Positions 31,924 through 48,748 of a stretch of DNA of 64,000 bases are shown here, piece after piece; the first letter of the stretch is position 1; each line of letters begins with the position of its first letter. The position numbers and the translations under genes are program-made. This DNA comes from Gemmatimonadota bacterium (lineage in GTDB: Bacteria; Latescibacterota; UBA2968; UBA8231): the NCBI GenBank assembly GCA_018672475.1, contig JABHFS010000116.1, forward strand, positions 621-64,620, written 5' to 3'. A model generated the notes under the pieces. It was not told where the DNA came from. It did no database searches and was given only the letters and a program-made list of their open reading frames with translations.

Positions 31924-33900
31924 ATGGCTCGAAGCCTCATTGCAGCAAGAGTATTGCTGATAGCATTGGCATTGGCCCCACAAGTCGATGGCTCAGAGAT
32001 TTTTACCGTGGGTGGGGACGAGAGGGGGTGGTCCAGTTGGGGCGAAACCCCAGGAGGTGTCATCGCCTTCGTCGATCGCCTCGGCGACGTGCAAAATGCC
32101 GCGGGCAATCAGGTCTTTGTAGGTGTCGCCGATTCGTTGAGCGGCTGGATCATGCCCTTGCGGCTCAATCCCGATTTCAATATTTCGCTCGATGTGTTTG
32201 AACGCGGCGGCGATATCGACGTGCCGAACCTAGCCCGCAGCGATAAAGACCCCGAAGAACTGGCAGGAGTGCTCAACGGCGATCATCGGGTGGCATACGA
32301 CCGCAAATTCGTCGCCGGGCGCATCGTGCGCAATAATGGCGTCGCGATTCGCATTGATCTAGGCGCTCGCTTCGGCATGGATCGCATCGTCTTCTATCCC
32401 AGGATGACGGATCTATTTCCCTTCGGCAATGAGTTTATGCGCGGCTACGAGCTCTTCCTCAACGACGGCTTGCCGCACAATTTATTTGCCAGCGGCCAGC
32501 CCATTTTCACCTCGCCCGTGCTGCGCGAGCCGGATAATCGCGAGGTTATGGTTGATATGCAGATCGAGCCCCAGTTCGTGCGCTTCGTCGAGCTCAAATC
32601 TATATCGACGCTGGGTTTTGAGGTCGATGAAATAGAGATCTACGGCCGGGGTTTTGTGCCGACGGCCCGCTATGTGTCCAATGTGCTGGACCTGGGGCAA
32701 GAGGGGGTATGGGGGGCGATCAACTGGACCGAGGCGCTGACCGGCGGAGCGGAGAACTCGAAGCTTGAAGTCCGGGTGCGCAGCGGGATGGACGAAACGC
32801 CCGATGTCTATTATCGCTCTGTAGCCGTGAACGGGGTTAGGGAATTGCTGCCGACCGATAGCAATGGCGATACGCTGACGCAGGCAACCTACGAAAAAAG
32901 GCTGTCGGAAACCGAGCGCGGGCCGATCAGGGGGGACGCGGCCCATTGGAGCCAATGGCAACTTGTTAGCAATGGCTCCAAGCTGAATTTGCCGGCGCCG
33001 CGCCGCTATTTTCAGTTTAGCATTGATTTCGCCAACCGGACCCTCGATGCGAGCAGAGCTATTGCTGATTTGGGCTTTGAGTTTGAGAGTCCCCCAGTCG
33101 ACCGGATCGTAGCCGAAATCGATCCTCCTCGTACTATAGTCGGCGAGCAGACGGCTTTTACTTACGCGGCCCGCACTGTTAACGCCACCGGGCGCTCGGG
33201 TTTTGTGCGTTTTGAGATCGAGACGCCGGCTCGGGTTTCAGCGGTCCGAACGGTGGAGATCCTGGATGCGGACAACAACCGTCTCGACGGAGCTGAGTTT
33301 ACCGGCGACATGTTGGAAGGGAATTTACCCGCGCAGGTCGGGGCTTTTGCGATCGAAGAGGTGGCGGACGACCACTTCACCTTGAGCCTTCCGCAGATTA
33401 GCGCCGACGGCACCTTGTTGAAGATTGAATTTGATGCGGCGGTGTTTCGCTACGGAACCCGCTTTCAAGGCCGTGCCTTCGCCGATGCCAATACACTGAT
33501 TCCCTTGCAAACCGAAGGGGGAGATGCGACCTCCGAACTGGATACCGACGAGCTTTTGGTGCGGGTCACAGTGGGGTCGCAGGTGGCCGGCCCTTTGCAG
33601 ATCGAGCCCGCAGTTTTTACGCCAAATGGGGACGGGATCAACGACGAGACGGCCATCAGCTATACGGTGTTGCACCTGCTCGAGCCCTCATTGGCCGAGG
33701 TTGACGTCTACGATCTGGCCGGTCGATGTGTGCGCCGACTCAGCGCGGCGATGGTCCAGAACGGCCGCGTGCCGCTCGACTGGGATGGGCGCGGCGCTGA
33801 CGGAAATCTGGTGGTTCCAGGGGTGTACTTGCTGCAAGTCGAAATTCATTCGGATCGCGGTATCGAGCGGCGTGTGGGTAGCGTCGCCGTTGTGTACTGA
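31924..33900 (+). CDS. Secreted multidomain protein, paralog P1: signal peptide, discoidin/F5-8-type-C-like module(s), C-terminal FlgD-Ig-like/T9SS-like domain
   Basis: 658 aa. Signal peptide 'MARSLIAARVLLIALALAPQVDG'. 'VRFVELKSISTLGFEVDEIEIYGRGF' matches a discoidin domain C-terminus ('aRyvRl....lRlElyG'). 'HWSQWQ' and 'RRYFQFSIDF' follow. The C-terminus is 'VFTPNGDGINDETAISYTV...VDVYDLAGRCVRRL...PGVYLLQV...VAVVY'. Confidence 0.7.
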   Translation: MARSLIAARVLLIALALAPQVDGSEIFTVGGDERGWSSWGETPGGVIAFVDRLGDVQNAAGNQVFVGVADSLSGWIMPLRLNPDFNISLDVFERGGDIDVPNLARSDKDPEELAGVLNGDHRVAYDRKFVAGRIVRNNGVAIRIDLGARFGMDRIVFYPRMTDLFPFGNEFMRGYELFLNDGLPHNLFASGQPIFTSPVLREPDNREVMVDMQIEPQFVRFVELKSISTLGFEVDEIEIYGRGFVPTARYVSNVLDLGQEGVWGAINWTEALTGGAENSKLEVRVRSGMDETPDVYYRSVAVNGVRELLPTDSNGDTLTQATYEKRLSETERGPIRGDAAHWSQWQLVSNGSKLNLPAPRRYFQFSIDFANRTLDASRAIADLGFEFESPPVDRIVAEIDPPRTIVGEQTAFTYAARTVNATGRSGFVRFEIETPARVSAVRTVEILDADNNRLDGAEFTGDMLEGNLPAQVGAFAIEEVADDHFTLSLPQISADGTLLKIEFDAAVFRYGTRFQGRAFADANTLIPLQTEGGDATSELDTDELLVRVTVGSQVAGPLQIEPAVFTPNGDGINDETAISYTVLHLLEPSLAEVDVYDLAGRCVRRLSAAMVQNGRVPLDWDGRGADGNLVVPGVYLLQVEIHSDRGIERRVGSVAVVY

Positions 33901-33921
33901 GCACAAGCAGGGAGGGAAGAA

Positions 33922-36594
33922 TTGAACACGCGATACGTGATTTATTATGTAGTGGCCGCCTGGTGTGTGGTGGCGGGGGCGAGTTTGTTGAATGCGCAGG
34001 AGGACCTGGGGACTCGTGTTGGTACGGTGAAGCGGGGCGGTGAGGTGGATTTCGCGCCTCGCGGTCCGGGGGTCCTCTTCGATGCGCTGGATCCTTCGAT
34101 GCGCAAATGGTATGTACCTCAGGAACTTTTCAATGAATATCGCTGGTCGCAATGGCAGTATACCAACTACGCCCGGAACCAGTACCAGCGCTATGTCAAT
34201 ACCACCCAAGAAGGCGATTATTTCTACGATATCTACGGAAACTTCGTCACCCGTGGTTGGCTGATTTACGACTGGCAGGAGGACCGGCCACAGCAATTCG
34301 GCAGTAGTATCCTCAAGACCAACCGTTTCAGCTCGTGGTTCAACAAGGTCGTTGTCGCCTCGGACAACCGTGGTCAGTTTCACTATAGTCTGACGATCGG
34401 CGACGAAATTCGTACCACCCTGACGCCCATGACCTTCTCAAAGCCGGGTTTTAACGGTATCCAGTGGGACTTTGCCGCCGACAAGTACGAGGGGACGATG
34501 CTGTTGGCCCGCCCCAGTCGGCCGGCGGCGGCCACCTCGCTCGACATACCCGACCAGAAGACCAGTGTCACTAACTTGCTGGCCGGTCGTGCTATTACCC
34601 ATGTTGGTGACTTCGTTAAGGTCGGGGCGACCTATGTTACGGCCTTTCAAGCCCAGACCCTACTCGACGATTTCAGCGGCAACCCCTTTGCCGGCGGTGC
34701 ACTGACGACCGACCAGAATGCGCTGCCGATTTCGCGCATCATCATCCGCCTATCGGATGATTCACCCGAAGACGGGAGTGGTGGCGCGGCGCTTTTCGAC
34801 GACGAAATCGTTATCCGGGACGTAGATGGCAATGTGACTAGGGGCAGCGCGGTCGGTTTCGAACCGATCCGCGAAGGTGGATTTCAGCGCGTGGGTTTTC
34901 TCGCCGCCGATGGTGACGAGCGTATCGTGCTGACCTACGATTTTACGGATCCTGGCTATCTGGGACCGGATCCTTCGGTGATCGAAGAGGTTGCATTTGA
35001 ACTCGTGGTGTCGAATGACTACAAGGTAGAGATTACATCGGATCGGCAGACCAATAGCGATGCGCAGCCGGTTTTCTTGCTAGTGGAGCGGGCCGAGGGC
35101 AATATCCGCGACAACTCCAATCAGCGTCTGCTTAAATTCGATTACGGTCTGCCCACTGCCAATGTCATCTTCGGCTTCACCTTCGAAGCGAATAAGATTA
35201 TGGGCTTCGATTTCTACGGCGAATACGACTTTAATAGGCAATATCGCCAGTACCCGAATACGAACTTGCGAGACCACAGTAAGGCGGTCAAAAAAGCGGA
35301 CGCTTGGATGATGAATCTGTCGCGGGTCGCATTTCCCTACTTCGCCTTCTTGGAAGGCTACGGTATGGACGACGCCTATTCGACACGCACGTTTCTGGCG
35401 GGCACTTTGCGCCAGGACGAGATCGATTACGAGAACGAACTATCTTATGTCTATGAGTTCGTTGACGACAACGACGACCAGGATCGACGACCTGACTGGA
35501 ACCGCTTCGGGCAGCCGTTGGTAGACAACGCTGTATTTCCGGGTTTTGACGAGAACAACGATTTCATCTCGGACTTCAACCAGAATGACACGGAGGATCG
35601 GCAGAACTTTGTGCCGGACTACGAAGAGCCTTTCTTGCGCTACCACGTCGACCGGCCGGAGTTCCTTTTTGGCATCGATATGAACAACAATGGTTGGGTC
35701 GACCGCTTCGAAAACGACGAGGAACCCGACTATCCCTATCGGCGTGATCACCGCGGCTATAACGCTTACGGCGGAGTGTTTATCACGCCAGAAGCCAGAT
35801 TGACGGTGGGGCGATTGAGTGAGGTGTTGATCGACGGGGACGGCGAGAATCGCAGCACGTATCTGCTGCTGACCTATGACCGCGATTTGGCTGGTTTTGG
35901 CCGGCTGCGCTTTTACGAGAATTTCCGCCTGGTCAAGGACAATATCGCCAACAATCTCTTTCAGTGGGTGCAGCCGGCCAATTCCCGCGGCACCCAGCAA
36001 CGGATTTTCGATCCACTACCTGCGCGCGACACCTGGGTAAATACTAGCTATTTGCAATTGGATTTTCGCCGGGTGTCCCGTCTGAACGTGATAAATAAAC
36101 TCAAGGTCGATGTGTATAACCAACGCGGGCAACAGGGTGAATTGCGCGGGGTGTCGAGCTTCGTCGGTTTGATAAATAAAGCCGATTACATCTTTGATGT
36201 AGGGCGTTTTGAGATCGAACCACGCATCAAGAGCGAATTTGTCCGCGAGCGCCCTTTCCGGCAACGCGACCCGGCCCGCCGCGAGTTGACAGAGACTCTG
36301 TTTCTGATCGCCCGTTTCCCGATGTTGCGCCAGACGATTATCGAATTGGGGCTAGAACTGTCCCACTTCGAGCAATTTCGCGATGATGCGGAGGGCGTGC
36401 CATTGCACCGCAATATAGCGCCGGATTCAAATAGCCGGATTTTAGCGATCCAATTTGCCAATGCCTCTGATTTCTTGGGGTACAAGCTGCATGTGCAGAC
36501 CGGTTTCCGGCTACAACGGGAAACCTTTAAAAACTTGCCTACGAGTACTACCAGCACGATTTTTATGACGGCATATGCCGGATTAGAGAGATGA
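33922..36594 (+). CDS. Large secreted aromatic- and Asp-rich hypothetical protein (putative outer-membrane/cell-surface component)
   Basis: 890 aa, 21 nt downstream of P1. Signal peptide 'MNTRYVIYYVVAAWCVVAGASLLNAQ'. Dense alternating aromatic residues throughout. Asp-rich loops 'DDNDDQDRRPDWN' and 'DMNNNGWVDRFENDEEPDY' resemble DxNxNGxxD Ca-binding loops. No known family recognised. Confidence 0.5.
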   Translation: MNTRYVIYYVVAAWCVVAGASLLNAQEDLGTRVGTVKRGGEVDFAPRGPGVLFDALDPSMRKWYVPQELFNEYRWSQWQYTNYARNQYQRYVNTTQEGDYFYDIYGNFVTRGWLIYDWQEDRPQQFGSSILKTNRFSSWFNKVVVASDNRGQFHYSLTIGDEIRTTLTPMTFSKPGFNGIQWDFAADKYEGTMLLARPSRPAAATSLDIPDQKTSVTNLLAGRAITHVGDFVKVGATYVTAFQAQTLLDDFSGNPFAGGALTTDQNALPISRIIIRLSDDSPEDGSGGAALFDDEIVIRDVDGNVTRGSAVGFEPIREGGFQRVGFLAADGDERIVLTYDFTDPGYLGPDPSVIEEVAFELVVSNDYKVEITSDRQTNSDAQPVFLLVERAEGNIRDNSNQRLLKFDYGLPTANVIFGFTFEANKIMGFDFYGEYDFNRQYRQYPNTNLRDHSKAVKKADAWMMNLSRVAFPYFAFLEGYGMDDAYSTRTFLAGTLRQDEIDYENELSYVYEFVDDNDDQDRRPDWNRFGQPLVDNAVFPGFDENNDFISDFNQNDTEDRQNFVPDYEEPFLRYHVDRPEFLFGIDMNNNGWVDRFENDEEPDYPYRRDHRGYNAYGGVFITPEARLTVGRLSEVLIDGDGENRSTYLLLTYDRDLAGFGRLRFYENFRLVKDNIANNLFQWVQPANSRGTQQRIFDPLPARDTWVNTSYLQLDFRRVSRLNVINKLKVDVYNQRGQQGELRGVSSFVGLINKADYIFDVGRFEIEPRIKSEFVRERPFRQRDPARRELTETLFLIARFPMLRQTIIELGLELSHFEQFRDDAEGVPLHRNIAPDSNSRILAIQFANASDFLGYKLHVQTGFRLQRETFKNLPTSTTSTIFMTAYAGLER

Positions 36595-36780
36595 AATCAG
36601 TTCGAGTAGCTCGATTGAAAATATCTGAAGTTGTAAGTAATAGATCGTTTTTTGTATACTACTAAATCGTCTCGTCGTAGTGTTCTCGGATTGAACGAAA
36701 GGAGGTCGAAAAGCCATAATTTAAGATCGGCGATTGTCCGATTGCATCACATTCGTTCATTTGAATTTAAGGAGAAAATA

Positions 36781-37641
36781 ATGAAGAAGTTTCAAGCTAT
36801 TATAGCTGCTGTGTTGATTTCTATGGTGGCTATTGGCAGCGCTTTTGCCCACCAGGGCCAGACGAAGTTCATGTTTCAGTTTCCCGATGGCTTGACCCCT
36901 GAATTGGATGGCGACATGTCGGACTGGGATATTGTCGGAGATGTCTACAAAATTCAGGGCGAAAACATGTTTAATCAGTTCGGGGCGCCGATGGACTTGG
37001 GCGATTTCAACGCCTCGCTGATATGGGCGTATAACATCACGGAGAATAAGGCGTATTTCGGAGCCTGGATTGCCGATGACGCGATCAACGATACCGAGAA
37101 GTGGTCGACGACCACCGACTGGGATCACAGCGGTGGCATATTCCGCGGCTTCGACCAGGGCGACGAGTTTGAAACCCGTTGGGCTAGCTCCCATGCACAG
37201 CGTTACGATATAGCTGGTCCGGTATTCAGTTCCTCTGGTTATTACACCCGCATCATCGATGGTTCCAAAGCTTGGGCCGGGCAGCCACCTTTTCTTGAAT
37301 GGGGTGGTGCATTCTTGCGCGGCGATGTCAATACTTTCGAGCCGGCCGAGATGTTCACCGAAATCGCTCTCACCCCTTACGACGACATCCATCCCGACGG
37401 GGCAGACGCGAGTATCGAGCATCAGTTCGTCGAAGGCCAGATCGTCGGTATCGAGGTCAACTGGGGTGATAAGGATGCCGACCCGGGCTCGTATGACGAT
37501 GCTTATTGGTCGGGTTTTGGTGGCGTTGGCGCCTCGAAGGACGCCGATCAGTTTGGCGATTATCTGCTGGCACCGGTCGAGTCCGACTTGCCGACGGCGG
37601 TCGAGACTAGCACCTGGGGTCAGATCAAGTCCAGTTTCTAA
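36781..37641 (+). CDS. Secreted hypothetical protein, possible carbohydrate-binding (CBM9/DOMON-like) module
   Basis: Start at M44 of ORF 36652..37641, preceded by an AAGGAG RBS. Signal peptide 'MKKFQAIIAAVLISMVAIGSAFA'. Trp/Asp/Gly-rich ('PELDGDMSDWDIVGD...'). Family assignment is weak. Confidence 0.45.
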   Translation: MKKFQAIIAAVLISMVAIGSAFAHQGQTKFMFQFPDGLTPELDGDMSDWDIVGDVYKIQGENMFNQFGAPMDLGDFNASLIWAYNITENKAYFGAWIADDAINDTEKWSTTTDWDHSGGIFRGFDQGDEFETRWASSHAQRYDIAGPVFSSSGYYTRIIDGSKAWAGQPPFLEWGGAFLRGDVNTFEPAEMFTEIALTPYDDIHPDGADASIEHQFVEGQIVGIEVNWGDKDADPGSYDDAYWSGFGGVGASKDADQFGDYLLAPVESDLPTAVETSTWGQIKSSF

Positions 37642-37747
37642 ATCATACCAAGTGCCGGCTTGGCACGAGTCTTGATCTGGGCAACAAGGGGCGGGGTTCG
37701 CGGGCGACCGTGAATCCCGCCGTTTTTTCGCTCGAAGGAGACATGCG

Positions 37748-39601
37748 GTGAAAAAGGTTCAGATATGGGTAGTGGGGTTGGCTGTGATCTTGTTTGGTGA
37801 GAGCGGGGCACGCGAGATCTATCAGTTGGGGGGAACTGGGGGCGTCGCGTGGAACGAGGTCGGTACAGCAACTTTTCTCGACGTCGATAAGTTGCCCGGC
37901 GGGATCCAGCCGCTCGAGACTGAGATCGGCGACAACCTGATCACCACGATGCAAAGTCGCGGCGGAGATCTGACTAGCCTGGTGAGTATTTACACCCTAC
38001 CGGGAGACTGGCAAGAGCAGCGCGTTTTGTTAGTAGATGGGGATTCGACAACGGCCTTCGTGCATCCGCCGCGCATCAATTTTTTTGCCACTTATTCCGG
38101 TATTCCCTTTTACACTGTGCCGATGTTCTTCGACTTGGGTGCGCCATTCCAGGTCGAACGGATCCGCTTTGGCGTAAGGAGCGATCAGCCAGGGCGCAAG
38201 ATTCGCCAGTTTCGCTTCTATGTCAACGACGGGCGCGAAGAAAGTAAGAACGACAAGGGCGATTTGATCTGGACTTTGTTGCGCGACGAAAAGGACAATT
38301 TGAAAACCTTGGTCGAATTTGAGATCGAACCGCAAGTGGTGCGTCATCTCTACCTGCACCCGCACGAATCGGGAGAGATTTGGGAGGTTGCCGAGTTTGA
38401 AGCATACGGACGCGGTTTTGTGCCGAGCGCATCCTTTGTCTCCGACCCGATCGACCTGGGGCAAGTTTCGAGTTTGGGGCGCATTTGGTGGAATGGCAAC
38501 CTCGATCCGCAGGCCAAAATTCTGATTCAGACCCGCAGCGGCGACGACGAGCAACCCGAGATTTACTGGCGCAAGACCGGCGTCGGCGAAGAAGAAGTGC
38601 CCCTGGGCCAGAACGGCCAACCGATGACCCGCCAAGAGTATTTGGCGATGCCGCAAAATGTGCAGGGCAAGGTCACCCAGGATCTGAAAAACTGGAGCGT
38701 CTGGCAGACATATGAATACGCGGACGGGCTCGCGGGTACTCGAATACTCTCGCCCGGTCCTCGGCAATTCATGCAATTGCGCGTTGACTTTTTTTCTACC
38801 GGTCAACAGGGCGGGCAGGTCGATTCCCTCTATTTTGAGTATTCCCAGCCGCCCGTGGTCAGGGAGGTAGTAGGCGAGATTCACCCGGCCTCGGTGAATT
38901 CGTTCGAGCCGGTTCGTTTTACCTATGCGATAAGGACGCGTTTGGATGCGGACCAGTCGGGTTTTAACGCGCTGGAGATTCGCACGCCCGCTCAGTTAGA
39001 AATAGTGCATAGCGTGCGCATCGACCGTGAAGTCGTGGCATTCGAACAGGAATCAGCTATAGATGATCCGCACAGCTTTAAGATCAGCTTCCCGCGAATC
39101 GCAACTGACCAGACTCTGTTGGAGGTGGAATTTGATGCGCGTGTATTCGTCTACGGCACGACATTTAGTGGGTCGGTGACAGACACGGCCGTCGACGAAG
39201 TCGCGCAAGAGGTGACTCCGGGAGATGCAGTGGCCGAGTTGCTCAACGACGGGTTGGGCGTACGGACCTCACTGCAAGGAGATTTACTTGGTGTGGTGGA
39301 GGCTGTGCCAAATCCGTTTTCGCCGAATGGCGACGGCATTAATGATCAGGTGGAGATCTCCTATACTCTCCAGCGCTTGACCGACGCGGTGCCCCTGTTA
39401 GCGGAAATCTACGATCTGGCCGGTCAGCGCGTGCGGCAATTGCGTGGTGCGCCGGGAGCGAGCGCGTTTTACCGGCTTGTTTGGGACGGACGGAACGAGC
39501 AGGGAGAGTTGGCCTTACCGGGGCTTTATATCGTACGTATCGTGGTCGAAGCTGATAGCGGTGACGAAGAAAAACTAAAACAGATTGGGTTGGTATACTA
39601 A
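37748..39601 (+). CDS. Secreted multidomain protein, paralog P2 (discoidin-like + FlgD-Ig/T9SS-like CTD)
   Basis: 617 aa. Signal peptide 'MKKVQIWVVGLAVILFGESGA'. 'VRHLYLHPHESGEIWEVAEFEAYGRGFVPSASFVSDPIDLGQ' is collinear with the P1 discoidin end. 'NWSVWQ' and 'PRQFMQLRVDFFS' follow. C-terminal domain 'PNPFSPNGDGINDQVEISYTL...AEIYDLAGQRVRQL...PGLYIVRI...GLVY'. Confidence 0.7.
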   Translation: MKKVQIWVVGLAVILFGESGAREIYQLGGTGGVAWNEVGTATFLDVDKLPGGIQPLETEIGDNLITTMQSRGGDLTSLVSIYTLPGDWQEQRVLLVDGDSTTAFVHPPRINFFATYSGIPFYTVPMFFDLGAPFQVERIRFGVRSDQPGRKIRQFRFYVNDGREESKNDKGDLIWTLLRDEKDNLKTLVEFEIEPQVVRHLYLHPHESGEIWEVAEFEAYGRGFVPSASFVSDPIDLGQVSSLGRIWWNGNLDPQAKILIQTRSGDDEQPEIYWRKTGVGEEEVPLGQNGQPMTRQEYLAMPQNVQGKVTQDLKNWSVWQTYEYADGLAGTRILSPGPRQFMQLRVDFFSTGQQGGQVDSLYFEYSQPPVVREVVGEIHPASVNSFEPVRFTYAIRTRLDADQSGFNALEIRTPAQLEIVHSVRIDREVVAFEQESAIDDPHSFKISFPRIATDQTLLEVEFDARVFVYGTTFSGSVTDTAVDEVAQEVTPGDAVAELLNDGLGVRTSLQGDLLGVVEAVPNPFSPNGDGINDQVEISYTLQRLTDAVPLLAEIYDLAGQRVRQLRGAPGASAFYRLVWDGRNEQGELALPGLYIVRIVVEADSGDEEKLKQIGLVY

Positions 39602-39602
39602 T

Positions 39603-41330
39603 ATGATATGGAGCGGTGGTTGGCGGGCGGTGCTTTGTTGGGCATTGGCGTGTGGCTGTGTCGCACAAGTGGAGCAAATCGCACCAGGAGGTAACCCTGG
39701 GGTGGTGGCCAGGGTAGATTCGACGGAGATATTTGCTGCCGAGTTGCATGCCTTTGTTGAGCAGATGCCCGCGGGCCTGCGTGCGCGAACCTCGAACGAG
39801 GGGGCGCGCATGTCCTATTTGCGCAGTCTGCTGGCCAAGCACTTGCTCGAACTGGAGGCGCGCGCGCAGGGCCTGGACATATCGTTCGAAGTCCAGGCGG
39901 ACCTTATGGCACGCTGGCGCGAGCATATCCTCAAAGTTTATCGAAACGAGGTGCTAGCCTCTCAGGTGCAGATTTCCGAAGCGGACATTCGCGCTTATTT
40001 CACACAGAAGGGGTTGGACCGTCGGCGGCAGGTCGCGGGTATTTTGCTCGACGAAGAGGCTTTAGCGCATGAGATCCACGCCAGGCTGGCAGCCGGAGAA
40101 GACTTCGCCGAGTTGGCTGAGCAATACACAATCGACGAACGCTCGGCGACCCAGGGCGGTCTGCTCGGGTTTGTCGATTTAGAACGGGCGCAGCGGTTGC
40201 GGATTCCCGCGGCGGTTTTTCGCGAGTTGCAGGCTGGACAGTTTTCACCCGTGTTGCCGATGGGCAAACGCTACCAGATCGTGCGTTTCTTTCAGGATCA
40301 GCCGGTGCCCTTCGCGGAGCGGCGCCAGCAGATTTATGATTTGCTCTATGAGCGCGAGCTGGTAGTGGCAGAGCAGCGTGAAATTCGCCATTTGGAGCGA
40401 AAATTAAAACTACAGCTGGTCTCGGAAGGGGTAAAGCTGCTACAGGACAAAGCGGAGCTTTATACCCGTGTACGGCGATCTCATCTTTCCGCCGCGGAGA
40501 GTGCACAACCGTTATTTACCTATAGGGGCGGGTCCGTCACGCTGGGCGACTATGTCGATATCCTCGGCCGGGATTTGCGCAGCCTGTCGGGTTGGGGGGT
40601 GCAGGACGGAGAAGAGGTGGTGGCGGCGGCCGGCGAGTTGGTCTTGGGGCAATGGTTGATTTTTGAGGCGGCGCGGCGGGCGGCGATAACTGATGGCCGG
40701 AATCAACAGCGCTGGCTGGAGGCGAATCGCAAGGAACTAATGATTAAAAAGCTAAGAAAGCTGGAAATTATCGACAAAGTTCAGCCGGACCGCGAAGACG
40801 CCAGGGATTTTTACGAGGACAACGAGAAATTGTTCCAAACCAACGGTGAATATATCCTCGTCGAGGTGTTGTTGGAGACGGAGGTAGAAGCTGTAGAGCT
40901 GCGGCGGCAAATCGCTCGGGGAGAGCAGACCCTAGCCTCCCTCGCGCAGCAGTATCCTCTGCGGGCCGAAATGCGTGATGAGGTGGGCATGATGCACATG
41001 GGGGATTACGAGCGGCTGACCCTGCCCCGACTCTATAAGGCGGTACAGGAGGCTGAGCTGAACGCGATCGTCGGTCCGGTGGAGGTCGAGGACGGGTTCA
41101 GTCTCTTCAAAGTCCTCGATCGCGAAGAACGTAAAGTGCAACCGTTCTCTGAAGTGGAATCGAAGGCGCGCGCCCTGTTGCGCGGCCAGCAGCGGGAGCA
41201 GCGCTTTGAGGAATGGATCGACTCGCTAATGGACAAGTACGACGATCGCATCGCCATTTCCGAGCGGGCTTTGGCGGCTGCCCTTCCAGATACTTTCCTG
41301 CAACGGCTAACACGAGACGGCCAAGAGTGA
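39603..41330 (+). CDS. SurA/PrsA-like peptidyl-prolyl cis-trans isomerase (PpiC-type) periplasmic chaperone
   Basis: ATG 2 nt after the P2 stop. Lipoprotein-like N-terminus 'MIWSGGWRAVLCWALACGC'. SurA_N-like 'VARVDSTEIFAAELHAFVEQ'. Parvulin domain 'QVAGILLDEEALAHEIHARLAAGEDFAELAEQYTIDERSATQGGLLGFVD'. A second degenerate parvulin-like region lies near the C-terminus. Confidence 0.7.
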   Translation: MIWSGGWRAVLCWALACGCVAQVEQIAPGGNPGVVARVDSTEIFAAELHAFVEQMPAGLRARTSNEGARMSYLRSLLAKHLLELEARAQGLDISFEVQADLMARWREHILKVYRNEVLASQVQISEADIRAYFTQKGLDRRRQVAGILLDEEALAHEIHARLAAGEDFAELAEQYTIDERSATQGGLLGFVDLERAQRLRIPAAVFRELQAGQFSPVLPMGKRYQIVRFFQDQPVPFAERRQQIYDLLYERELVVAEQREIRHLERKLKLQLVSEGVKLLQDKAELYTRVRRSHLSAAESAQPLFTYRGGSVTLGDYVDILGRDLRSLSGWGVQDGEEVVAAAGELVLGQWLIFEAARRAAITDGRNQQRWLEANRKELMIKKLRKLEIIDKVQPDREDARDFYEDNEKLFQTNGEYILVEVLLETEVEAVELRRQIARGEQTLASLAQQYPLRAEMRDEVGMMHMGDYERLTLPRLYKAVQEAELNAIVGPVEVEDGFSLFKVLDREERKVQPFSEVESKARALLRGQQREQRFEEWIDSLMDKYDDRIAISERALAAALPDTFLQRLTRDGQE

Positions 41331-41359
41331 ACTCGCACAATTCTACCGGGGTAAGCGCG

Positions 41360-43999: not shown

Positions 44000-44025
44000 C
44001 GGCGGACGGATGAAGTACGATATAG

Positions 44026-44054
44026 AGCGGCCGCTTTTGCGGTCGCTTTTTTTG
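44026..44054 (+). terminator. Rho-independent terminator downstream of P3
   Basis: 'agcggccgcttttgcggtcgcttttttt': a GC-rich imperfect hairpin followed by a 7-T run, in the convergent gap between P3 (+) and the phosphoesterase (-). Confidence 0.5.
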
Positions 44055-44070
44055 TGCTAGGCGGGCAGGT

Positions 44071-45651
44071 TTAAGGTGAAGAACTCAGGGTAATGATATC
44101 GTTGTAGAGCCGGCGTTCGTTGCCGAGAAACGTTCCATCCGCTGAAAAGAGCGGGAAGATATAAACGGGTTTGAGTATGGCCAGCCAGCCCGTCTTGCCG
44201 GGCAGGACATCGACCTCAAGGTGGCCATAGTGTTTGCCGCCGTCGACGAGGACGCCGTCGTGCCAGATTTCGCGCGCGTCGATATGGGCGATAAATTTCT
44301 GATATTTGTTTTTTAACCCTGCTTCGGGGGCGCGGAGTCCGTCGCCGCCGGTACCGATATCGTAAAAGTGGATGGTGTGGGGTATTTGTTTTCCGTCGGT
44401 GGTTTTCATGCCCACGATCTCCGAACGCTCCCATATTTCGTCGTGCCCGGCCAGGACCGCGTCGACCCCGTAGCGCATAAAGAGCGGGGTCAGAACGCGC
44501 ACCGGCACGCCCGATTGATTATCGTGCTCGTCGTCCCGCGGGCCGGGGGATTTGCCGTGCGGCCCCACCGAGTAGGGGACGTGGTGGAAGAATACGAAGG
44601 TGAATTTGCTTTTGTGTTGGGCGTCAGCGAGCTGTTTTTCGAGCCATGCATACTGGCGTGAACCCGGGCCGAAGGCGGGTGCCCGGCCGCCTTCGGGGTC
44701 TTTTTCCCCCACTAACATAAAGTTGGTGTCGCGCTTCGATTGGTTTGGACTGTTGTTGGCGACATCGAGGGCGATAAGAGTGATGGGGCCGTAATCGACG
44801 CGATAGTAGCGGCCCTTTTGCCGCGCATCGTCGGCCTGGTTGTCGGGAAATTCGAAATAGGTTCGGAAGCGGGTGATGGCTCTTTCGGAGTCGGGCTGGT
44901 TGTAGCCTTTGCCCGGCCCTGCGTAGTATTCGTGGTTGCCGGGTGTTGCGAGGATGGGTATCTGACCGGCGATGCTTTGCCTGCCGTCGGCATTGGTATT
45001 GTGCAGCCAAAATTCATCCCAGTCGCGTTGCTCTCCTCCCGATTCGACGAGATCGCCGGCGATGGCGATGAAATCGGGTCGGCGGGCAGCGATCACCGCC
45101 AGGTTCTCGCCGTAGCCCATGGTCTGATCAAGGAAATAGGTACTATCGAGTACGCTGCTCGGCCGTAGGTCGCTAACCCACTTAACGTGCTTGCCCGTGG
45201 ATTCCGGCTCGGTCTCGCAGTCGGCATAGGCGATAAAGCGAATGGGCTGCTTGGCTGTCGGGGCGGTGGTGAAGGTCGCTGCGAAATGGCTGGCGCCTTG
45301 CGTGACCTCGTAGGCATAGGCGGTCGCAGGAATCAGGTCGTTGAGACGAACTCTGTGCCGGAATGGTGATGGCGGGGCTTGGCCGCCGAAGTGGGTTTCG
45401 TTTTCTGAGGCCAGATAGGCTAGGGCGTCGGTGCGGATAGGGGTGGAGACTATGGTCGTATCGTTGCTGGTACCTTTTTTTCGATAGGTCAATCGACCGG
45501 GGGTATCGTCGTTGGAAAACCAGAGGATGCTCATACTGGCGGTCGTTGGGTTCTGAATATAGGGGAAGACGCGGAAATCGGCGCTGAAAGCCGGCCAGAC
45601 AAAGACCGCTATCGAGAATATTGCAATCAGGCATTGGGCATTCGGGCGCAT
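44071..45651 (-). CDS. Secreted metallophosphoesterase, purple-acid-phosphatase-like (N-terminal fn3-like domain + calcineurin-like phosphoesterase)
   Basis: 526 aa with a signal peptide. 'FIAYADCE', 'GDLVESGGEQRDWDEFW', 'TPGNHEY' and 'VFFHHVPYSVGPHG' are metallophos motifs. Confidence 0.7.
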   Translation of the reverse strand: MRPNAQCLIAIFSIAVFVWPAFSADFRVFPYIQNPTTASMSILWFSNDDTPGRLTYRKKGTSNDTTIVSTPIRTDALAYLASENETHFGGQAPPSPFRHRVRLNDLIPATAYAYEVTQGASHFAATFTTAPTAKQPIRFIAYADCETEPESTGKHVKWVSDLRPSSVLDSTYFLDQTMGYGENLAVIAARRPDFIAIAGDLVESGGEQRDWDEFWLHNTNADGRQSIAGQIPILATPGNHEYYAGPGKGYNQPDSERAITRFRTYFEFPDNQADDARQKGRYYRVDYGPITLIALDVANNSPNQSKRDTNFMLVGEKDPEGGRAPAFGPGSRQYAWLEKQLADAQHKSKFTFVFFHHVPYSVGPHGKSPGPRDDEHDNQSGVPVRVLTPLFMRYGVDAVLAGHDEIWERSEIVGMKTTDGKQIPHTIHFYDIGTGGDGLRAPEAGLKNKYQKFIAHIDAREIWHDGVLVDGGKHYGHLEVDVLPGKTGWLAILKPVYIFPLFSADGTFLGNERRLYNDIITLSSSP

Positions 45652-45669
45652 AAATTAGATCCTATGGCT

Positions 45670-47724
45670 TCAATAAGTCAGCGAGAAGAAACCTATGTTG
45701 TGTTGGTCGGCGATGGCGTCGACGGATAGCCTGTAGATATAGGTCCCCGGTGGCAGCAGCTGACCGTCGGGGCCGCGGCCGGCCCAATGGCGGGTGAACT
45801 CGCCGCTTTGTGAACGCAAAGGATCGAGCGTGGCGACCTGCGCGCCGGCGAGGTTGAATATGTGCACGGTAATCGGCCGCGGTTGTGTAACTTCGCGCAA
45901 TTTATAGGCCACTGTCAAGACATCGTTAATGCCGTCGCCGTTGGGTGTGAATACTTTGGGATCGACGCGGACGGCGGCAAAGAGGGCGCCGCCGATCGGG
46001 GTCTGTACGGCGAGGGCGTCGCCGGAGAAGCGGAATGTCGCGTTGCCGGGCCGGACGTTCTGCTTGATCTGGTCGGGATCGGCGCTGTCGTAGATCCAGC
46101 TGTTGAAAGGCGCTCCGAAGCGCAGTACCGAGGTGTCGAAGACGACCTCTATCTGTTTGAACGAATCGTCAGTGCCGATCAGTTTTGGAAAGCTGACGAC
46201 GATGCGGTCGTCGAGGATCTGGGCGGGAAAGTCGCCGTCGCCGTCGAGGGTGAAGGGGATTTCGACGGCGTCGACGACGACGGATCTCAGGGTGGTGGCG
46301 CGGGTATGGGTGAGGATTTCCAGGCGGTCGAAACCGAGATCGCTTTCGTTGAGCGTCGGCCGAACCACATAAGTGAAGGTCTGCGGTGCAAAGGAGTTGA
46401 CCTCGGTGGGCCAGATTTCACCGACGACCTCGCTGGCGGCAGGAGCTTCACTAAAATGCAGGCTCAACTGGTCGAGGCGGGGGGCGGAGTTGAGGGTGCT
46501 GAATAGGCGGACGGCGATCTGTATATAGCGGCTGGGGCTGGGGGAGGTCAGGGGAGTCCCGTCGCGCCAGGCGGCGGCGGTTATGGTTTCATCGCGCCAG
46601 CCGGCTGCAAAATCGTAGGGCGGTGACCAGAAGCTCCAGTTATCGGTGTCGTAGATGGTCGGGCGGCGGCCTCTGGGGTCGATTTTCTCGTATTGTTCTA
46701 GGGTGATGGGGACGATGTCCCCGTTGGTGTTTTTGTCGAAATAGAGGCTGGGGTCCGGGGTCTGGCCGGTGCGGGTGCGGATTTCGATGCGGGTGCCCGC
46801 CGGCAGTTCGCCGCTCCAGCGGATCTTGTCCCAACTGACGGTCTGGCCGAAATCGAGAATCTGGGAGAGGTAAACGGTTTTGGCGACATACCCTTCGCCA
46901 TAGACCTCGAATTCGGCGATCTCCCAGTTGCTCAACGGGAAAGTGCGCAGGGTGAGCCAGCGGATCGAGCGGGTGTTAAAACGGTAATCGACGACGATAT
47001 CGAGGTTTTCGCGGGTCGACTGGATAATGTCGAGGTTGGCCCCTTGGGGGGCTTGGGCGCTGTCGGCGACTCGTATCTCGTACCACTTGACGTAATTGTC
47101 GGCGAAACTGGTTTCGGGAAAGCGTGCGAATGGAATTTGCGGGGCGCTAAGCCCCTCGATCAGCGTCCGGTCGTCCTCCGGGCCGAGTCGGGGATAAAAG
47201 CGCACGCGGTTTACGGGCACGTCGGCGCCGAAATCGAAGGGACAGCCGCAGGCCCAACCCTCGCCGATCCCCGGTCGGCTGTTGGGGTCTTGGGTAAAGC
47301 GACGGAAGTGGGCGGTTTTGGGGTCGCCATCGAGCATTTTGAACAAGTTGAAGTTCTGGCCTTGGCCGCCGTGCGAGGTGCCGCCGGTATAGGGCAATGG
47401 GATAGGGGTCGAGCCGGCTCCCAGGTTGGTCTCGGGGTCGGCTCCCACTAAGTTGACCGTGGGGTCGATAAAACGGGGCTGGATCGAATTGGCGGAGAAA
47501 TCGATCAGCGTATCGGTGCCGGCGCCGTGCGGCGTGATACCGACGGGCATCGAGCGCAAGAGTTGGCCGTCCTGGTCGAAGACCTGGTAGGAGCCGGCGT
47601 TCTCCTCTCCTAACGCGTCCTGCCAGGCATTGCCATCAGGGCCGCCAAGGTGGTATTCGGTACGGCCCAAAGCCGGTGTCGCTGTGAGCAGGGCGCAATG
47701 CAGCAAAAGGTAGATACGGCGCAT
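45670..47724 (-). CDS. Secreted multidomain protein, paralog P4 (discoidin-like + FlgD-Ig/T9SS-like CTD)
   Basis: 684 aa. Signal peptide 'MRRIYLLLHCALLTATPALG'. 'FKMLDGDPKTAHF' is a discoidin block. 'IRWLTLRTFPLSNWEIAEFEVYGEGYVAKTVYLSQILDFGQ' is collinear with P1-P3. 'SRYIQIAVRLFS' follows. C-terminal domain 'VFTPNGDGINDVLTVAYKL...VHIFNLAGAQVATL...PGTYIYRL...FSLTY'. Confidence 0.7.
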   Translation of the reverse strand: MRRIYLLLHCALLTATPALGRTEYHLGGPDGNAWQDALGEENAGSYQVFDQDGQLLRSMPVGITPHGAGTDTLIDFSANSIQPRFIDPTVNLVGADPETNLGAGSTPIPLPYTGGTSHGGQGQNFNLFKMLDGDPKTAHFRRFTQDPNSRPGIGEGWACGCPFDFGADVPVNRVRFYPRLGPEDDRTLIEGLSAPQIPFARFPETSFADNYVKWYEIRVADSAQAPQGANLDIIQSTRENLDIVVDYRFNTRSIRWLTLRTFPLSNWEIAEFEVYGEGYVAKTVYLSQILDFGQTVSWDKIRWSGELPAGTRIEIRTRTGQTPDPSLYFDKNTNGDIVPITLEQYEKIDPRGRRPTIYDTDNWSFWSPPYDFAAGWRDETITAAAWRDGTPLTSPSPSRYIQIAVRLFSTLNSAPRLDQLSLHFSEAPAASEVVGEIWPTEVNSFAPQTFTYVVRPTLNESDLGFDRLEILTHTRATTLRSVVVDAVEIPFTLDGDGDFPAQILDDRIVVSFPKLIGTDDSFKQIEVVFDTSVLRFGAPFNSWIYDSADPDQIKQNVRPGNATFRFSGDALAVQTPIGGALFAAVRVDPKVFTPNGDGINDVLTVAYKLREVTQPRPITVHIFNLAGAQVATLDPLRSQSGEFTRHWAGRGPDGQLLPPGTYIYRLSVDAIADQHNIGFFSLTY

Positions 47725-47743: not shown

Positions 47744-48748
47744 CTATATTTTAATCGTCCGCTGGCCTTTACCTGCTTTGAGCACGGCGGTCGCGATTTC
47801 GAGCGCGGCGATGCCGTCGGTGCCAGTGACTAGGGGTTGCTCGTTGCGGGCAAAGCATTTGACCACGTGCTTGGCCTGCTCGGTGAACATGTCCTTGAGT
47901 GGGTAGGTGTGCACTTTTTCGCGCCCCTTACTCGTTTTGACGGTGAAGGCCCCGTGTTTTTTGTGGTCGAATGAGGCGGGGGCCTTTTGCGCGGTCATGC
48001 CGAATTGCAGGCTGCCTTTGGGCCCGATGATATCGTTGAGCCGGTCGACGGCGGTGCCCTCGGCCATGCCCCAGGACCAGATCAGGGTATGTTGGTCGCC
48101 GCTGGCAAAATTTATGATCGCACTGGCGGTGTCGGCGCCGACGCTAGTCGGGTCGAATTGCAGTGAGGAGGCCTGTGCCGAAGCGGCAGGTCCGAAGATC
48201 TGCAGGGCGAAGTCGTAGTTGTGCACGGCGCCGTCGATCAGTGGGCCGCCGCCCTTGTTGACGTCGCGGAACCAGGCGGGGCCGGGACGGCCGCCGGAGG
48301 CGAAGCGCCAGATGACGGGGCGGCCTAGGGCGCCGGACTGGACGATCTGCTTGAGCTTGCCCCATTGGCTGTCGAAGCGGCGCACAAAACCGATGGTGAG
48401 CCGGACATTCGCCTGTTCGCAGGCGCGCAGCATGCGCCGGGCGTCGGGCAGGTTGAGCGCCATCGGCTTTTCGCAGAAGACGTGTTTGCCTGCCTTGGCG
48501 GCGGCGATGACCGGGGCGGGGTGTTGGAAGGTGGGGGTGCAGACCCAGACGGCGTCTAAGTCGGGCAAGTCGAGCATTCGGCGATAGTCGGTCGTGTGGT
48601 ACTCGGCGCCAAAATCGCTGGCAAAACTGTTGGCCGCGGCGGCGATGACGTCGGAGACGGCGAGGATTCGCGCGCCTTTTATCTGAGTTAAACGTGCGGC
48701 ATGATGGCGGGCGATACCGCCACCGCCGATAAAACCGATATTGAGCAT
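47744..48748 (-). CDS. Gfo/Idh/MocA family oxidoreductase
   Basis: 334 aa. 'MLNIGFIGGGGIARHHAARL' and 'EKPMA'. 20 nt upstream of P4 on the same strand. Confidence 0.8.
   Translation of the reverse strand: MLNIGFIGGGGIARHHAARLTQIKGARILAVSDVIAAAANSFASDFGAEYHTTDYRRMLDLPDLDAVWVCTPTFQHPAPVIAAAKAGKHVFCEKPMALNLPDARRMLRACEQANVRLTIGFVRRFDSQWGKLKQIVQSGALGRPVIWRFASGGRPGPAWFRDVNKGGGPLIDGAVHNYDFALQIFGPAASAQASSLQFDPTSVGADTASAIINFASGDQHTLIWSWGMAEGTAVDRLNDIIGPKGSLQFGMTAQKAPASFDHKKHGAFTVKTSKGREKVHTYPLKDMFTEQAKHVVKCFARNEQPLVTGTDGIAALEIATAVLKAGKGQRTIKI

Follow-up and report, generated by a model that had tools for sequence, protein, structure and literature searches.

What do four divergent secreted proteins, interleaved with a large putative outer-membrane protein, a parvulin-type chaperone and a phosphoesterase, do for a Latescibacterota cell, and which of these genes belong together? 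We addressed this question in a 64,000-nucleotide stretch of contig JABHFS010000116.1 (the window). The four secreted proteins are genuine paralogs and belong to an undescribed cassette, of which Latescibacterota genomes carry several copies and which combines lectin-like surface proteins with a novel predicted barrel of ~900 residues; no literature on this cassette system was found. All nine open reading frames that the earlier note had placed here were recovered at the same coordinates, and they are listed below together with two hairpins.

P1: 31924..33900, plus strand, 658-aa secreted protein of the P family (from open reading frame and paralogy)
G890: 33922..36594, plus strand, 890-aa predicted outer-membrane beta-barrel
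G329: 36781..37641, plus strand, 286-aa secreted protein starting MKKF
Hairpin in the G329/P2 gap: 37690..37721, plus strand, terminator-like, 14-bp stem with 10 G-C pairs, then a T run
P2: 37748..39601, plus strand, 617-aa protein of the P family
PPI: 39585..41330, plus strand, periplasmic chaperone-like protein of ~575 aa with two parvulin PPIase domains
P3: 41360..43999, plus strand, 879-aa long-form protein of the P family (from open reading frame and paralogy)
Hairpin in the convergent P3/MPE gap: 44024..44049, plus strand, terminator-like, 11-bp stem, then a T run; a pattern match only
MPE: 44071..45651, minus strand, 526-aa secreted, purple-acid-phosphatase-like metallophosphoesterase
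P4: 45670..47724, minus strand, 684-aa protein of the P family (from open reading frame and paralogy)
GFO: 47744..48748, minus strand, 334-aa Gfo/Idh/MocA oxidoreductase, first gene of the convergent unit

A family of four secreted paralogs

All-against-all BLASTP confirmed the proposed homology of the four secreted proteins. All six pairs reached E-values of 6e-39 or lower: P1-P2 (34% over 620 aa, E 4e-87), P2-P4 (31%, E 3e-73), P1-P4 (28%, E 1e-58), P2-P3 (29%, E 2e-50), P3-P4 (29%, E 2e-44) and P1-P3 (28%, E 6e-39). Because these values are so low and no other gene of the region matched the family (E > 0.3), the paralogy is far above chance; the description of the family as old and maintained was likewise supported. 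Each P protein starts with a Sec leader, contains a CBM32/discoidin-fold module and two beta-sandwich domains, and ends in a T9SS type-B-like C-terminal domain (CTD). P1 shows this arrangement, with a CTD of the FlgD-Ig/CHU_C type bearing 'VFTPNGDGIND'. In P3, the common architecture follows an additional N-terminal stretch of ~355 aa without relation to the other paralogs, and the match to Pfam F5_F8_type_C (25.0 bits) lies under the cut-off of 28.2. Such long-form members (850-1100 aa) occur in nearly all cassettes.

Among the domains of the family, conservation is most even in the CTD, at 32-41% across all pairs. Its earlier assignment to the FlgD-Ig/T9SS type held at the Pfam level, where the domain is of the type-B kind. 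In the C-terminal ~100 aa, the FlgD_ig cut-off of 27 was reached by P1 (39.9 bits) and P4 (33.0 bits) and narrowly missed by P2 (25.6 bits) and P3 (24.3 bits). CHU_C, the T9SS type B signal domain, matched P4 (41.6 bits) and P2 (27.4 bits) at or above its cut-off of 27, and P1 (25.1 bits) and P3 (20.9 bits) under it. However, the assignment did not extend to the NCBIfam T9SS sorting-domain models TIGR04131 and TIGR04183, for which all four paralogs scored under the curated cut-offs. If Latescibacterota lack the T9SS core genes, the route of the P proteins across the outer membrane would be left unexplained. In public annotation, the 'FTPNGDGIND' type-B-like CTD carries the name 'gliding motility-associated C-terminal domain'.

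The large predicted barrel and its conserved neighbours

G890 lies directly downstream of P1 after a gap of 21 nt. Structure prediction supports the view of this 890-aa product as an outer-membrane protein and depicts a novel beta-barrel of ~24 long strands; no family in Pfam, NCBIfam or the PDB was matched. An inserted beta domain (~272-400) would be extracellular because it is placed after an odd-numbered strand, as judged from turn lengths, and a conserved Asp-rich loop (515-605) is probably extracellular and Ca-binding. The N-terminal segment (~27-76) is conserved and confined to copies of the satellite type discussed below; together with the acidic loop it would offer interaction surfaces, modelled with low confidence.

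For G329, a start at 36781 (MKKFQAII..., 286 aa, in agreement with homologs) is most likely, instead of 36652. The window protein has no Pfam match, and its fold is probably CBM9/DOMON-like: CBM9_1 was matched by 3 of 25 family members (best E 4e-5), and in the PDB the family profile picked out the CBM9 of a xylanase at E 0.2. A C-terminal motif, 'TAVE..sWGqIKssF', is kept across ~55 paralogs. PPI, whose reading frame shares 17 nt with the end of P2, matched Rotamase_2 (63.8 bits), Rotamase (59.1 bits) and Rotamase_3 (37.1 bits) in Pfam. Like SurA/PrsA-type chaperones, it is exported and combines two parvulin domains with a helical N-terminal region, which is weakly SurA_N-like (SurA_N_3, 17.5 bits against a cut-off of 27.2); unlike them, it is duplicated with each cassette and is not a single housekeeping gene. 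Orthology to SurA itself was rejected (NCBIfam equivalog, 23.6 bits against a cut-off of 394). The strong hairpin at 37690-37721 may divide the plus-strand cluster into P1-G890-G329 and P2-PPI-P3. This hairpin is possibly a terminator or attenuator, although both hairpins are pattern matches only and the region's total of such sites is not above shuffled expectation.

Across Latescibacterota, the cassette comprises 2-4 P paralogs, one or two G890 barrels of ~900 aa, a G329 of ~290 aa and a double-parvulin PPIase. Of the 60 related loci that span 20 kb or more, every one has at least two P genes, 53 have a G329-like (CBM9-like) gene and 54 have the double-parvulin PPIase. The complete set beside the barrel (at least two P genes, G329-like gene and PPIase) was found in 52/60 full-length related loci, and the proposed functional linkage of the neighbours thus strongly passed the synteny test. 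A P-family gene stands directly upstream of 73 of the 97 G890-family genes (median gap 27 nt), and single Latescibacterota chromosomes hold at least 3-6 cassettes (e.g., six in OZ220690.1). The supposed attachment to the neighbouring catabolic island was not supported, because the flanks vary among both orthologous and paralogous loci and the catabolic genes of the window were found again in only 0-6 of 85 loci.

Other FCB phyla also retain the core pair of P and barrel genes: Ignavibacteria, KSB1 and Marinimicrobia have 'master' loci in which a PorV/PorP-like small barrel sits between the P gene and G890, accompanied by a ~1040-aa TPR protein, ExbB/ExbD and DUF4159. Among Latescibacterota-type MAGs, the PorV-like barrel, TPR protein, ExbB/ExbD and DUF4159 are all retained in L090. 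In L094 and L095, P genes are accompanied by three tandem G890 barrels, the TPR protein and DUF4159; the PorV/PorP-like barrel and ExbB/ExbD were not seen in the stretch retrieved for them. MAG JAYPJE01 holds the master-type locus L090 plus the satellite loci L070 and L077. In the window, the cassette lacks a PorP/PorV-like gene, and ExbB/ExbD are absent throughout.

Possible roles of the cassette

Our best explanation, which we advance tentatively, is that the window carries a 'satellite' copy of a surface-display module, in which lectin-like P proteins are docked on a dedicated barrel via their T9SS type-B-like CTD. These proteins probably capture glycans. Of two readings offered earlier, the one that sees a family of T9SS cargo provided with a chaperone and an outer-membrane partner of its own is the better, given the PorV/PorP-like barrel in distant loci. 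There is precedent for type-B CTD cargo binding to a cognate small barrel whose gene is adjacent (PMC9143113, PMC12618676). All components would be exported via Sec; the parvulin chaperone would escort the barrel, the large beta-rich P proteins or both across the periplasm, and G890 would insert into the outer membrane. The P proteins would reach the cell surface and be held there by the CTD, with the barrel or, in loci that encode one, a PorP-like shuttle as docking partner, by analogy with the type-B cargo SprB and PG1035 binding SprF and PorP, and G329 may dock via its conserved, strand-like C-terminal motif. The exposed CBM32-like and CBM9-like modules would bind glycans or particles, and diversification of the P proteins among cassettes could lead to different specificities. 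An ExbBD/TPR master locus elsewhere in such genomes may cooperate with the complex or supply it with energy in trans.

The closest parallels are SprB-SprF of Flavobacterium johnsoniae and PG1035-PorP-PorE of Porphyromonas gingivalis. Shared with them are a secreted cargo with a ~100-aa C-terminal Ig-like domain matching CHU_C and, below cut-off, TIGR04131 ('FTPNGDGIND'), a cargo gene adjoining an outer-membrane barrel gene in multi-copy pairs, and, in distant loci, a true PorV/PorP-like barrel encoded between P and G890. In contrast, the barrel of the window belongs to a novel family of ~900 aa instead of ~300 aa, a parvulin chaperone and a CBM9-like protein are added, master loci have ExbB/ExbD instead of GldL/M (PorL/M), and the organism belongs to Latescibacterota, a phylum not known to have a T9SS. 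Because G890 is about three times the size of PorP/SprF and unrelated to them in sequence, the role of an anchor may understate its function.

Alternatively, G890 could be a channel for transport across the outer membrane, functionally comparable to SusC/TonB-dependent transporters and powered by the ExbB/ExbD-TPR master locus, with P proteins and G329 capturing substrate at the surface like SusD/E/F and one glycan per cassette. We consider this PUL-like import unlikely, although the many diverged copies per genome resemble PULs, G890 homologs of four lineages have ExbB/ExbD linked to them, in two gene orders, and the N-terminal segment shared by all satellite barrels might serve as a coupling box. 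Some satellites also adjoin a sugar-type ABC importer (SBP_bac_1 and two permeases), a DUF6785 membrane protein and catabolic enzymes; the window cassette adjoins sulfatase, heparinase-like and sugar-acid genes, and a published Latescibacteria genome analysis assumed uptake through non-specific porins only (PMC4454575). However, G890 has no Plug domain, TonB_dep_Rec or TonB-box signature, and the master loci yielded no TonB homolog, a 264-aa ORF there having no match. Unlike the SusC/SusD utilisomes of Bacteroidota, the cassettes have no SusD-like protein, their surface proteins bear a CTD in place of a lipid anchor, and neither a CAZyme nor a regulator gene is consistently present, the adjoining catabolic genes varying among loci. 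The single-copy locus of other phyla, with only one lectin-like protein, also appears more housekeeping-like.

A role in adhesion or gliding, with the P proteins as SprB-like adhesins on G890 platforms, with or without the PorP-like barrel, is distinctly improbable. An ExbBD proton-motive-force motor and TPR scaffolds would then move or hold the adhesins, as in Bacteroidota gliding or Myxococcus Agl-Glt. The CTD motif with its gliding-associated name, and the PorV/PorP-like barrel, giant TPR protein and ExbB/ExbD of the master loci, are consistent with this, and the TPR protein has sub-threshold similarity to PorW/SprE (E 1e-35 to 1e-41). That similarity is generic, however, with YbgF/CpoB and BamD as best matches; the P proteins are globular, lectin-like and 600-900 aa long, whereas SprB forms repeat filaments of several thousand residues, and GldJ/K/N homologs were seen in none of the examined loci.

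Still more doubtful is a structural role, in which G890 would be an SlpA-like giant barrel or porin serving as surface-layer base or outer-membrane tether, decorated by P proteins and G329. Deinococcus-Thermus SlpA (SlpA_C, PF21620), also a large outer-membrane barrel with long extracellular insertions, is the best fold-level match of G890 and the sole Pfam family touched by any family member, sub-threshold in KSB1 and Ignavibacteria (E 3.7e-8, 32.7 bits against a cut-off of 35); moreover, the three tandem paralogs of L094 and L095 recall a trimeric assembly. Nevertheless, TM-scores are only 0.19-0.25, G890 probably has ~24 strands against 30, and an SLH or coiled-coil tether is absent. G890 of the window has no SlpA_C match, a PDB search with the family profile recovers no SlpA sequence, and several diverged copies per genome would be unusual for a structural layer. 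Finally, a chaperone-usher-like system, in which PPIase as periplasmic chaperone and G890 as usher would thread and polymerise the P paralogs into a surface fibre, is very improbable: G890 is usher-sized (~24 strands) and accompanied by multiple paralogous Ig-rich subunits and a dedicated chaperone, but its inserted domain would be extracellular and not a periplasmic plug, Pfam signatures of usher and PapD-type chaperone are absent, and the P proteins have complete domains and their own CTD instead of incomplete Ig folds needing donor strands.

The convergent minus-strand unit

GFO, P4 and MPE make up a separate unit of three minus-strand genes, convergent to P1-P3, with gaps of 18-19 nt and MPE last. 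Co-transcription of P1-P3 with the phosphoesterase, as the earlier note had it, does not apply, because the phosphoesterase is on the opposite strand. Nor does P4 belong with P1-P3: in the orthologous loci L008-L018 (~65% identity; 10 kb of flank each, with the short or incomplete L010 and L012 excluded), no P4 or phosphoesterase neighbour was found. P4 is an orphan member of the family outside the P1-P3 unit, and its nearest relatives (51-53% identity, frequently in tandem pairs) lie in another cassette type (L056, L060, L063, L083, L084).

MPE matched Metallophos (52.3 bits) and Pur_ac_phosph_N (31.8 bits) in Pfam, both above cut-off. It is a loosely associated neighbour, found beside the orthologous cassette in seven loci and two distinct arrangements; in the two closest loci, L006 and L025, it is kept after P3, at which point the contigs end. 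In L001, the phosphoesterase bears a FlgD_ig CTD. GFO, which has no signal peptide and is probably cytoplasmic, matched Pfam GFO_IDH_MocA (104 bits) and an iolG-like NCBIfam model at 183.6 bits, under the cut-off of 355. A Gfo gene also comes after two P-family genes in L005.

Gene organisation and the paralogous secreted proteins

Nine long ORFs were found in the 31.9–48.7 kb region of the window, together with two terminator-like hairpins:

P1, 31924–33900, plus strand: lectin-like secreted protein
G890, 33922–36594, plus strand: predicted outer-membrane barrel of 890 aa
G329, 36781–37641 (most likely start), plus strand: CBM9-like secreted protein
Hairpin, 37690–37721: terminator-like, in the intergenic gap after G329
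P2, 37748–39601, plus strand: paralog of P1
PPIase, 39585–41330, plus strand: double-parvulin protein
P3, 41360–43999, plus strand: paralog of P1
Hairpin, 44024–44049: terminator-like, in the gap after P3, facing the convergent MPE gene
MPE, 45651–44071, minus strand: metallophosphoesterase, convergent with the plus-strand genes
P4, 47724–45670, minus strand: paralog of P1, convergent with the plus-strand genes
Gfo/Idh/MocA oxidoreductase gene, 48748–47744, minus strand: convergent with the plus-strand genes

The two strong hairpins, called as pattern matches, lie exactly in intergenic gaps, which suggests that the plus-strand genes are transcribed as two units and not as a single one. A leader-like hydrophobic stretch was recognised by eye at the N-terminus of every secreted component; the assignment of signal peptides and of barrel topology was based solely on sequence and secondary structure.

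The proposed common origin of P1–P4 was borne out by all-against-all BLASTP, which aligned them across almost the whole of their shared length (28%–34% identity, E 6e-39 to 4e-87) and found no relatives of theirs among the other genes of the region. According to BLAST, P3 does not repeat the common module in its additional N-terminal region. The C-terminal domain (CTD) is the most evenly conserved part of the family (32%–41% between paralogs) and carries the motif 'F(T/S)PNGDG(I/A)ND' in all four proteins. The earlier note had assigned this domain to the FlgD-Ig/T9SS type, and the assignment stood in part, with Pfam scores lying around the gathering thresholds. The FlgD_ig cut-off (PF13860, 27 bits) was exceeded by P1 (39.9) and P4 (33.0) and narrowly missed by P2 (25.6) and P3 (24.3), and that of CHU_C (PF13585, 27 bits) was exceeded by P4 (41.6) and P2 (27.4), with P1 (25.1) and P3 (20.9) below. 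In contrast, no CTD of a P protein reached the cut-off of any T9SS sorting-domain model in NCBIfam, and all four proteins remained below that of TIGR04131 (35 bits; best P4, 29.0). The discoidin module described for the same proteins survives as a fold, namely a beta-sandwich jelly-roll superimposable on CBM32 modules; against F5_F8_type_C (PF00754), P3 scored 25.0 bits versus a cut-off of 28.2, and P1, P2 and P4 had no match. Unmarked matches to this model (E at most 1e-5) were found in the P-family homologs of three related loci from other phyla (L088, L092 and L093).

The predicted barrel and its partner proteins

G890 represents a barrel family without annotation that comprises more than 1000 clusters at 50% identity (1044 with the family profile). 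Its homologs, numbering > 1160 and all named 'hypothetical', and the P2 orthologs (50%–99% identity) both came from Latescibacterota MAGs. No sequence relative of G890 was found in Pfam, NCBIfam or the PDB, the last searched with two family profiles. The AF2 model (pLDDT 74, pTM 0.72) contains ca. 24 long antiparallel strands, which fits a large outer-membrane beta-barrel. At ca. 272–400 it includes an inserted beta domain that was modelled with confidence and that, from the succession of short and long turns, probably lies on the extracellular side. An Asp-rich loop (515–605) is highly conserved and poorly modelled. The N-terminal segment (ca. 27–76; 'RGGxVSFEPTGPGVLFDALDPAVRKWYVPQELY'), modelled with an AF2 confidence below 50, is strongly conserved among the barrels of satellite loci, i.e., those with a P/G890/G329/PPIase cassette as in the window. 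Homologs in a second locus type, termed master, lack the N-terminal ca. 50 residues found in all satellite barrels, and their matches begin at profile position ca. 75–80. Possibly, this segment is a box recognised in trans by a common partner. Another motif, 'W(S/K)QW(Q/E)Y', is located at residues 341–349 of P1 ('HWSQWQ' in the P family) and 74–82 of G890 ('RWSQWQY'). Both families conserve this motif, and its joint occurrence may reflect chance or a shared interaction motif.

Membership of G890 in the TonB-dependent transporter, LptD, usher or SlpA families was in each case rejected or found no firm support. Neither G890 nor G329 matched the PorP/SprF and PorV/PorQ models (PF11751, TIGR03519 and NF033709). 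Matches of G890 to usher folds were generic, and Pfam signatures of ushers and PapD-like chaperones were absent; these results speak against a chaperone-usher pathway, as does the model of P2, which shows complete domains in contrast to the incomplete Ig fold of pilin subunits.

G329 had no match in Pfam or NCBIfam, including the CBM9 model (PF06452). Within its family, this model was matched by three of 25 members (best E 4.3e-5), the homolog in L090 (a Latescibacterota-type master locus) had a weak CBM9_1 flag, and the family profile reached the xylanase CBM9 chain 7nwn in the PDB at E 0.2, which points to weak CBM9-like signals. The last ca. 15 residues of ca. 55 paralogs in the loci L003–L087 contain a conserved 'TAVE..(S/T)WG(R/Q)IK(A/S)(S/T)F', followed by 0–4 residues and no transmembrane helix. 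In appearance this motif is a strand for docking or sorting, and we know of no C-terminal signal that it matches. One Latescibacterota locus on a 5.7-Mb contig (L086:1-6805) carries six tandem G329 paralogs (277–338 aa), after which come a prepilin peptidase (Peptidase_A24), a P-family gene and G890.

The earlier description of the PPIase as SurA-like holds for its two parvulin domains (Pfam Rotamase_2, 63.8 bits; Rotamase, 59.1 bits) but not for the remainder, since SurA_N_3 scored 17.5 bits versus a cut-off of 27.2 and the NCBIfam SurA model 23.6 versus 394; judged from these scores, the protein is not a SurA ortholog. MPE was indeed purple-acid-phosphatase-like (Metallophos, 52.3 bits, cut-off 21.5; Pur_ac_phosph_N, 31.8 bits, cut-off 30). 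Its ortholog in a related locus (L001:1328-3208, 626 aa) ends in an FlgD_ig domain that the window protein (44071–45651, 526 aa) lacks; the same enzyme thus occurs with and without a CTD.

Conserved cassettes and related loci in other phyla

When GTDB species genomes were scanned with the profile of G890, 540 loci were confirmed, the best 80 of which were retrieved. Among these 80, single complete chromosomes carried at least 3–6 separate loci (e.g., at least six on OZ220690.1), and these counts per genome are minimum values, as they come from the best 80 of 540 loci. In a relative with ca. 50% (P2) to ca. 70% (G890) identity, the order P1-G890-G329-P2-PPIase-P3 was exactly retained and the flanking genes were all different. 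Synteny was counted by mapping the window proteins onto the ORFs of the fetched loci. Retention of the neighbouring genes was evident in the 60 loci of ≥ 20 kb, where at least two P genes were present in all 60 (at least three in 52), a G329-like gene in 53 and a parvulin PPIase in 54. A P-family gene was located directly upstream of 73/97 G890 genes on the same strand (median gap 27 nt), and 11 loci contained two tandem G890 genes. These synteny statistics ruled out chance clustering, and the differing gene order between cassette classes argues for selection on co-location. MPE was found beside the orthologous cassette in seven loci, and orthologous loci with ca. 65% identity had no P4 or phosphoesterase neighbour; the nearest relatives of P4 are located in another cassette class.

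Divergent G890 members were found in Ignavibacteriales, KSB1 and Marinimicrobia. The loci of these phyla, which are of the master type, have the following gene content in common:

P-family protein with F5_F8_type_C and a CHU_C-type CTD
PorV/PorQ/PorP-like barrel of 310–329 aa (NF033709, E 1e-14 to 1e-18; Pfam PorP_SprF in KSB1)
G890 homolog
TPR protein of ca. 1040 aa, its repeats YbgF/CpoB and BamD-like, its similarity to PorW/SprE below threshold
ExbB and ExbD
Two DUF4159 proteins

The position of ExbB/ExbD differs, being upstream in L088 and downstream in the other two loci, L092 and L093. The PorV/PorQ-family model was matched in L088 and L093, and L092 was matched by this model and by Pfam PorP_SprF. 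A PorP/SprF-like barrel gene also adjoins the cargo gene in L090 and L043, and PorV/PorQ-like small barrels occur in Latescibacterota-type loci; no PorP/PorV-like gene was detected beside the cargo gene in the window cassette with Pfam and NCBIfam. Latescibacterota-type MAGs with the master form encode two or three tandem G890 paralogs, the TPR protein and DUF4159, and ExbB/ExbD and a PPIase were found only in L090. One MAG holds the master form together with satellite cassettes. Three tandem G890 paralogs precede the giant TPR protein and DUF4159 in L094:7320-15594 (894, 920 and 944 aa) and L095:2361-11018 (898, 921 and 1041 aa), which hints at a hetero-oligomeric barrel assembly. ExbBD, the TPR protein and DUF4159 are linked to G890 by conserved neighbourhood.

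Proposed surface display and alternative roles

The individual domains are already known, and the cassette may be a module of T9SS type-B cargo and an outer-membrane partner. It is best explained as a putative surface-display module. The lectin-like P proteins would be exported by Sec and kept at the cell surface by their type-B-like CTD, held on a dedicated barrel; CTD cargo on a cognate barrel has precedents in SprB-SprF and PG1035-PorP (PMC9143113, PMC12618676). G329 could be a second subunit for binding, and the role of dedicated chaperone could fall to the parvulin protein. That the cassettes have diversified suggests that their ligands differ; these are most plausibly glycans.

A broader, tentative reading, with a modest but real chance of being right, is that the P-then-G890 pair forms the outer-membrane end of an unrecognised FCB-wide, PMF-driven trans-envelope machine distinct from SusCD/TonB and the canonical T9SS, and that Latescibacterota multiplied this outer-membrane module into at least 3–6 satellites per genome as a PUL equivalent. 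With the same reserve, its parts might be the lectin-like CTD protein, the PorV/PorP-like barrel, the ca. 900-aa barrel, the ca. 1040-aa TPR protein, ExbB/ExbD and DUF4159. No ExbB/ExbD or TonB genes were found in the window. Any energetic coupling to ExbBD is hypothetical.

PUL-like import of substrate by the barrel, in addition to display, seems rather unlikely. The 24 kb upstream (7973–31672) encode a sulfatase, three PhyH dioxygenases, a DUF4962/heparinase II-III-like protein, a GDSL esterase, an SDR, an enolase-superfamily dehydratase, an isochorismatase, TPR proteins and a 572-aa PQQ-like beta-propeller, along with a UxuA-like TIM barrel, Gfo, glyoxalase, cupin and MBL (UxuA-like, Gfo, PhyH, glyoxalase, cupin and MBL genes at 13.7–19.8 kb), a content consistent with the use of sulfated or acidic glycans. 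The earlier note had attached the cassette to this catabolic island, which was rejected as a conserved property because each of the 11 flanking catabolic proteins was found by BLAST in only 0–6 of 85 related loci. Features of SusC/TonB-dependent transporters (an N-terminal Plug and a TonB box ahead of a 22-strand barrel) were not found in G890. A barrel serving adhesion or motility is improbable. The name of the P proteins in public annotation is 'gliding motility-associated C-terminal domain-containing protein'. An SlpA-like structural element is likewise improbable. Deinococcus SlpA ranked first for the G890 model in Foldseek (E 2–5e-9) with TM-scores of 0.2–0.25, SlpA_C (PF21620, cut-off 35 bits) did not match the window G890 and gave a few distant family members 20–33 bits, and the model contains no SLH domain or coiled coil.

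In sediments and oceans, Latescibacterota, KSB1, Marinimicrobia and Ignavibacteria are abundant polymer degraders, most of them uncultured. An analysis of Latescibacteria genomes assumed non-specific porins for uptake (PMC4454575). The conserved multicopy cassette is a concrete candidate for the missing surface machinery of substrate capture and uptake in these phyla. Our literature search found no paper describing the G890 family, the cassette, its multicopy state in Latescibacterota or the FCB-wide master locus, nothing on T9SS, type IX secretion or FlgD in Latescibacteria, nothing useful on T9SS distribution across FCB phyla and, for DUF4159, the Pfam database paper only. That T9SS-type CTDs and PorV/PorP-like shuttles are tied to ExbBD motors beyond the canonical T9SS of Bacteroidota bears on the evolution of T9SS-like systems. 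The cassette could also be a genomic marker, analogous to SusC/D pairs, that predicts substrate-acquisition loci in these phyla.

Some source MAGs of P2 and G890 homologs are labelled Gemmatimonadota or Planctomycetota. Five contigs with near-identical cassettes (L006, L007, L016, L022 and L028) bear the record labels Planctomycetota, Gemmatimonadota or Gemmatimonas phototrophica; they are most closely related to chromosomes of Latescibacterota, and these MAGs were therefore probably mis-binned or mis-classified. Genes for PhyH, MR_MLE and isochorismatase were also found in the vicinity of certain other cassettes. A ca. 660-aa DUF6785/DUF6784 protein often follows satellite cassettes (26 paralogous loci, e.g., L064:14466-16481 and L087:17888-19873), and the flanks of the L087 cassette additionally encode a sugar-type ABC importer (SBP_bac_1 and two permeases), an isochorismatase and an MR_MLE dehydratase.
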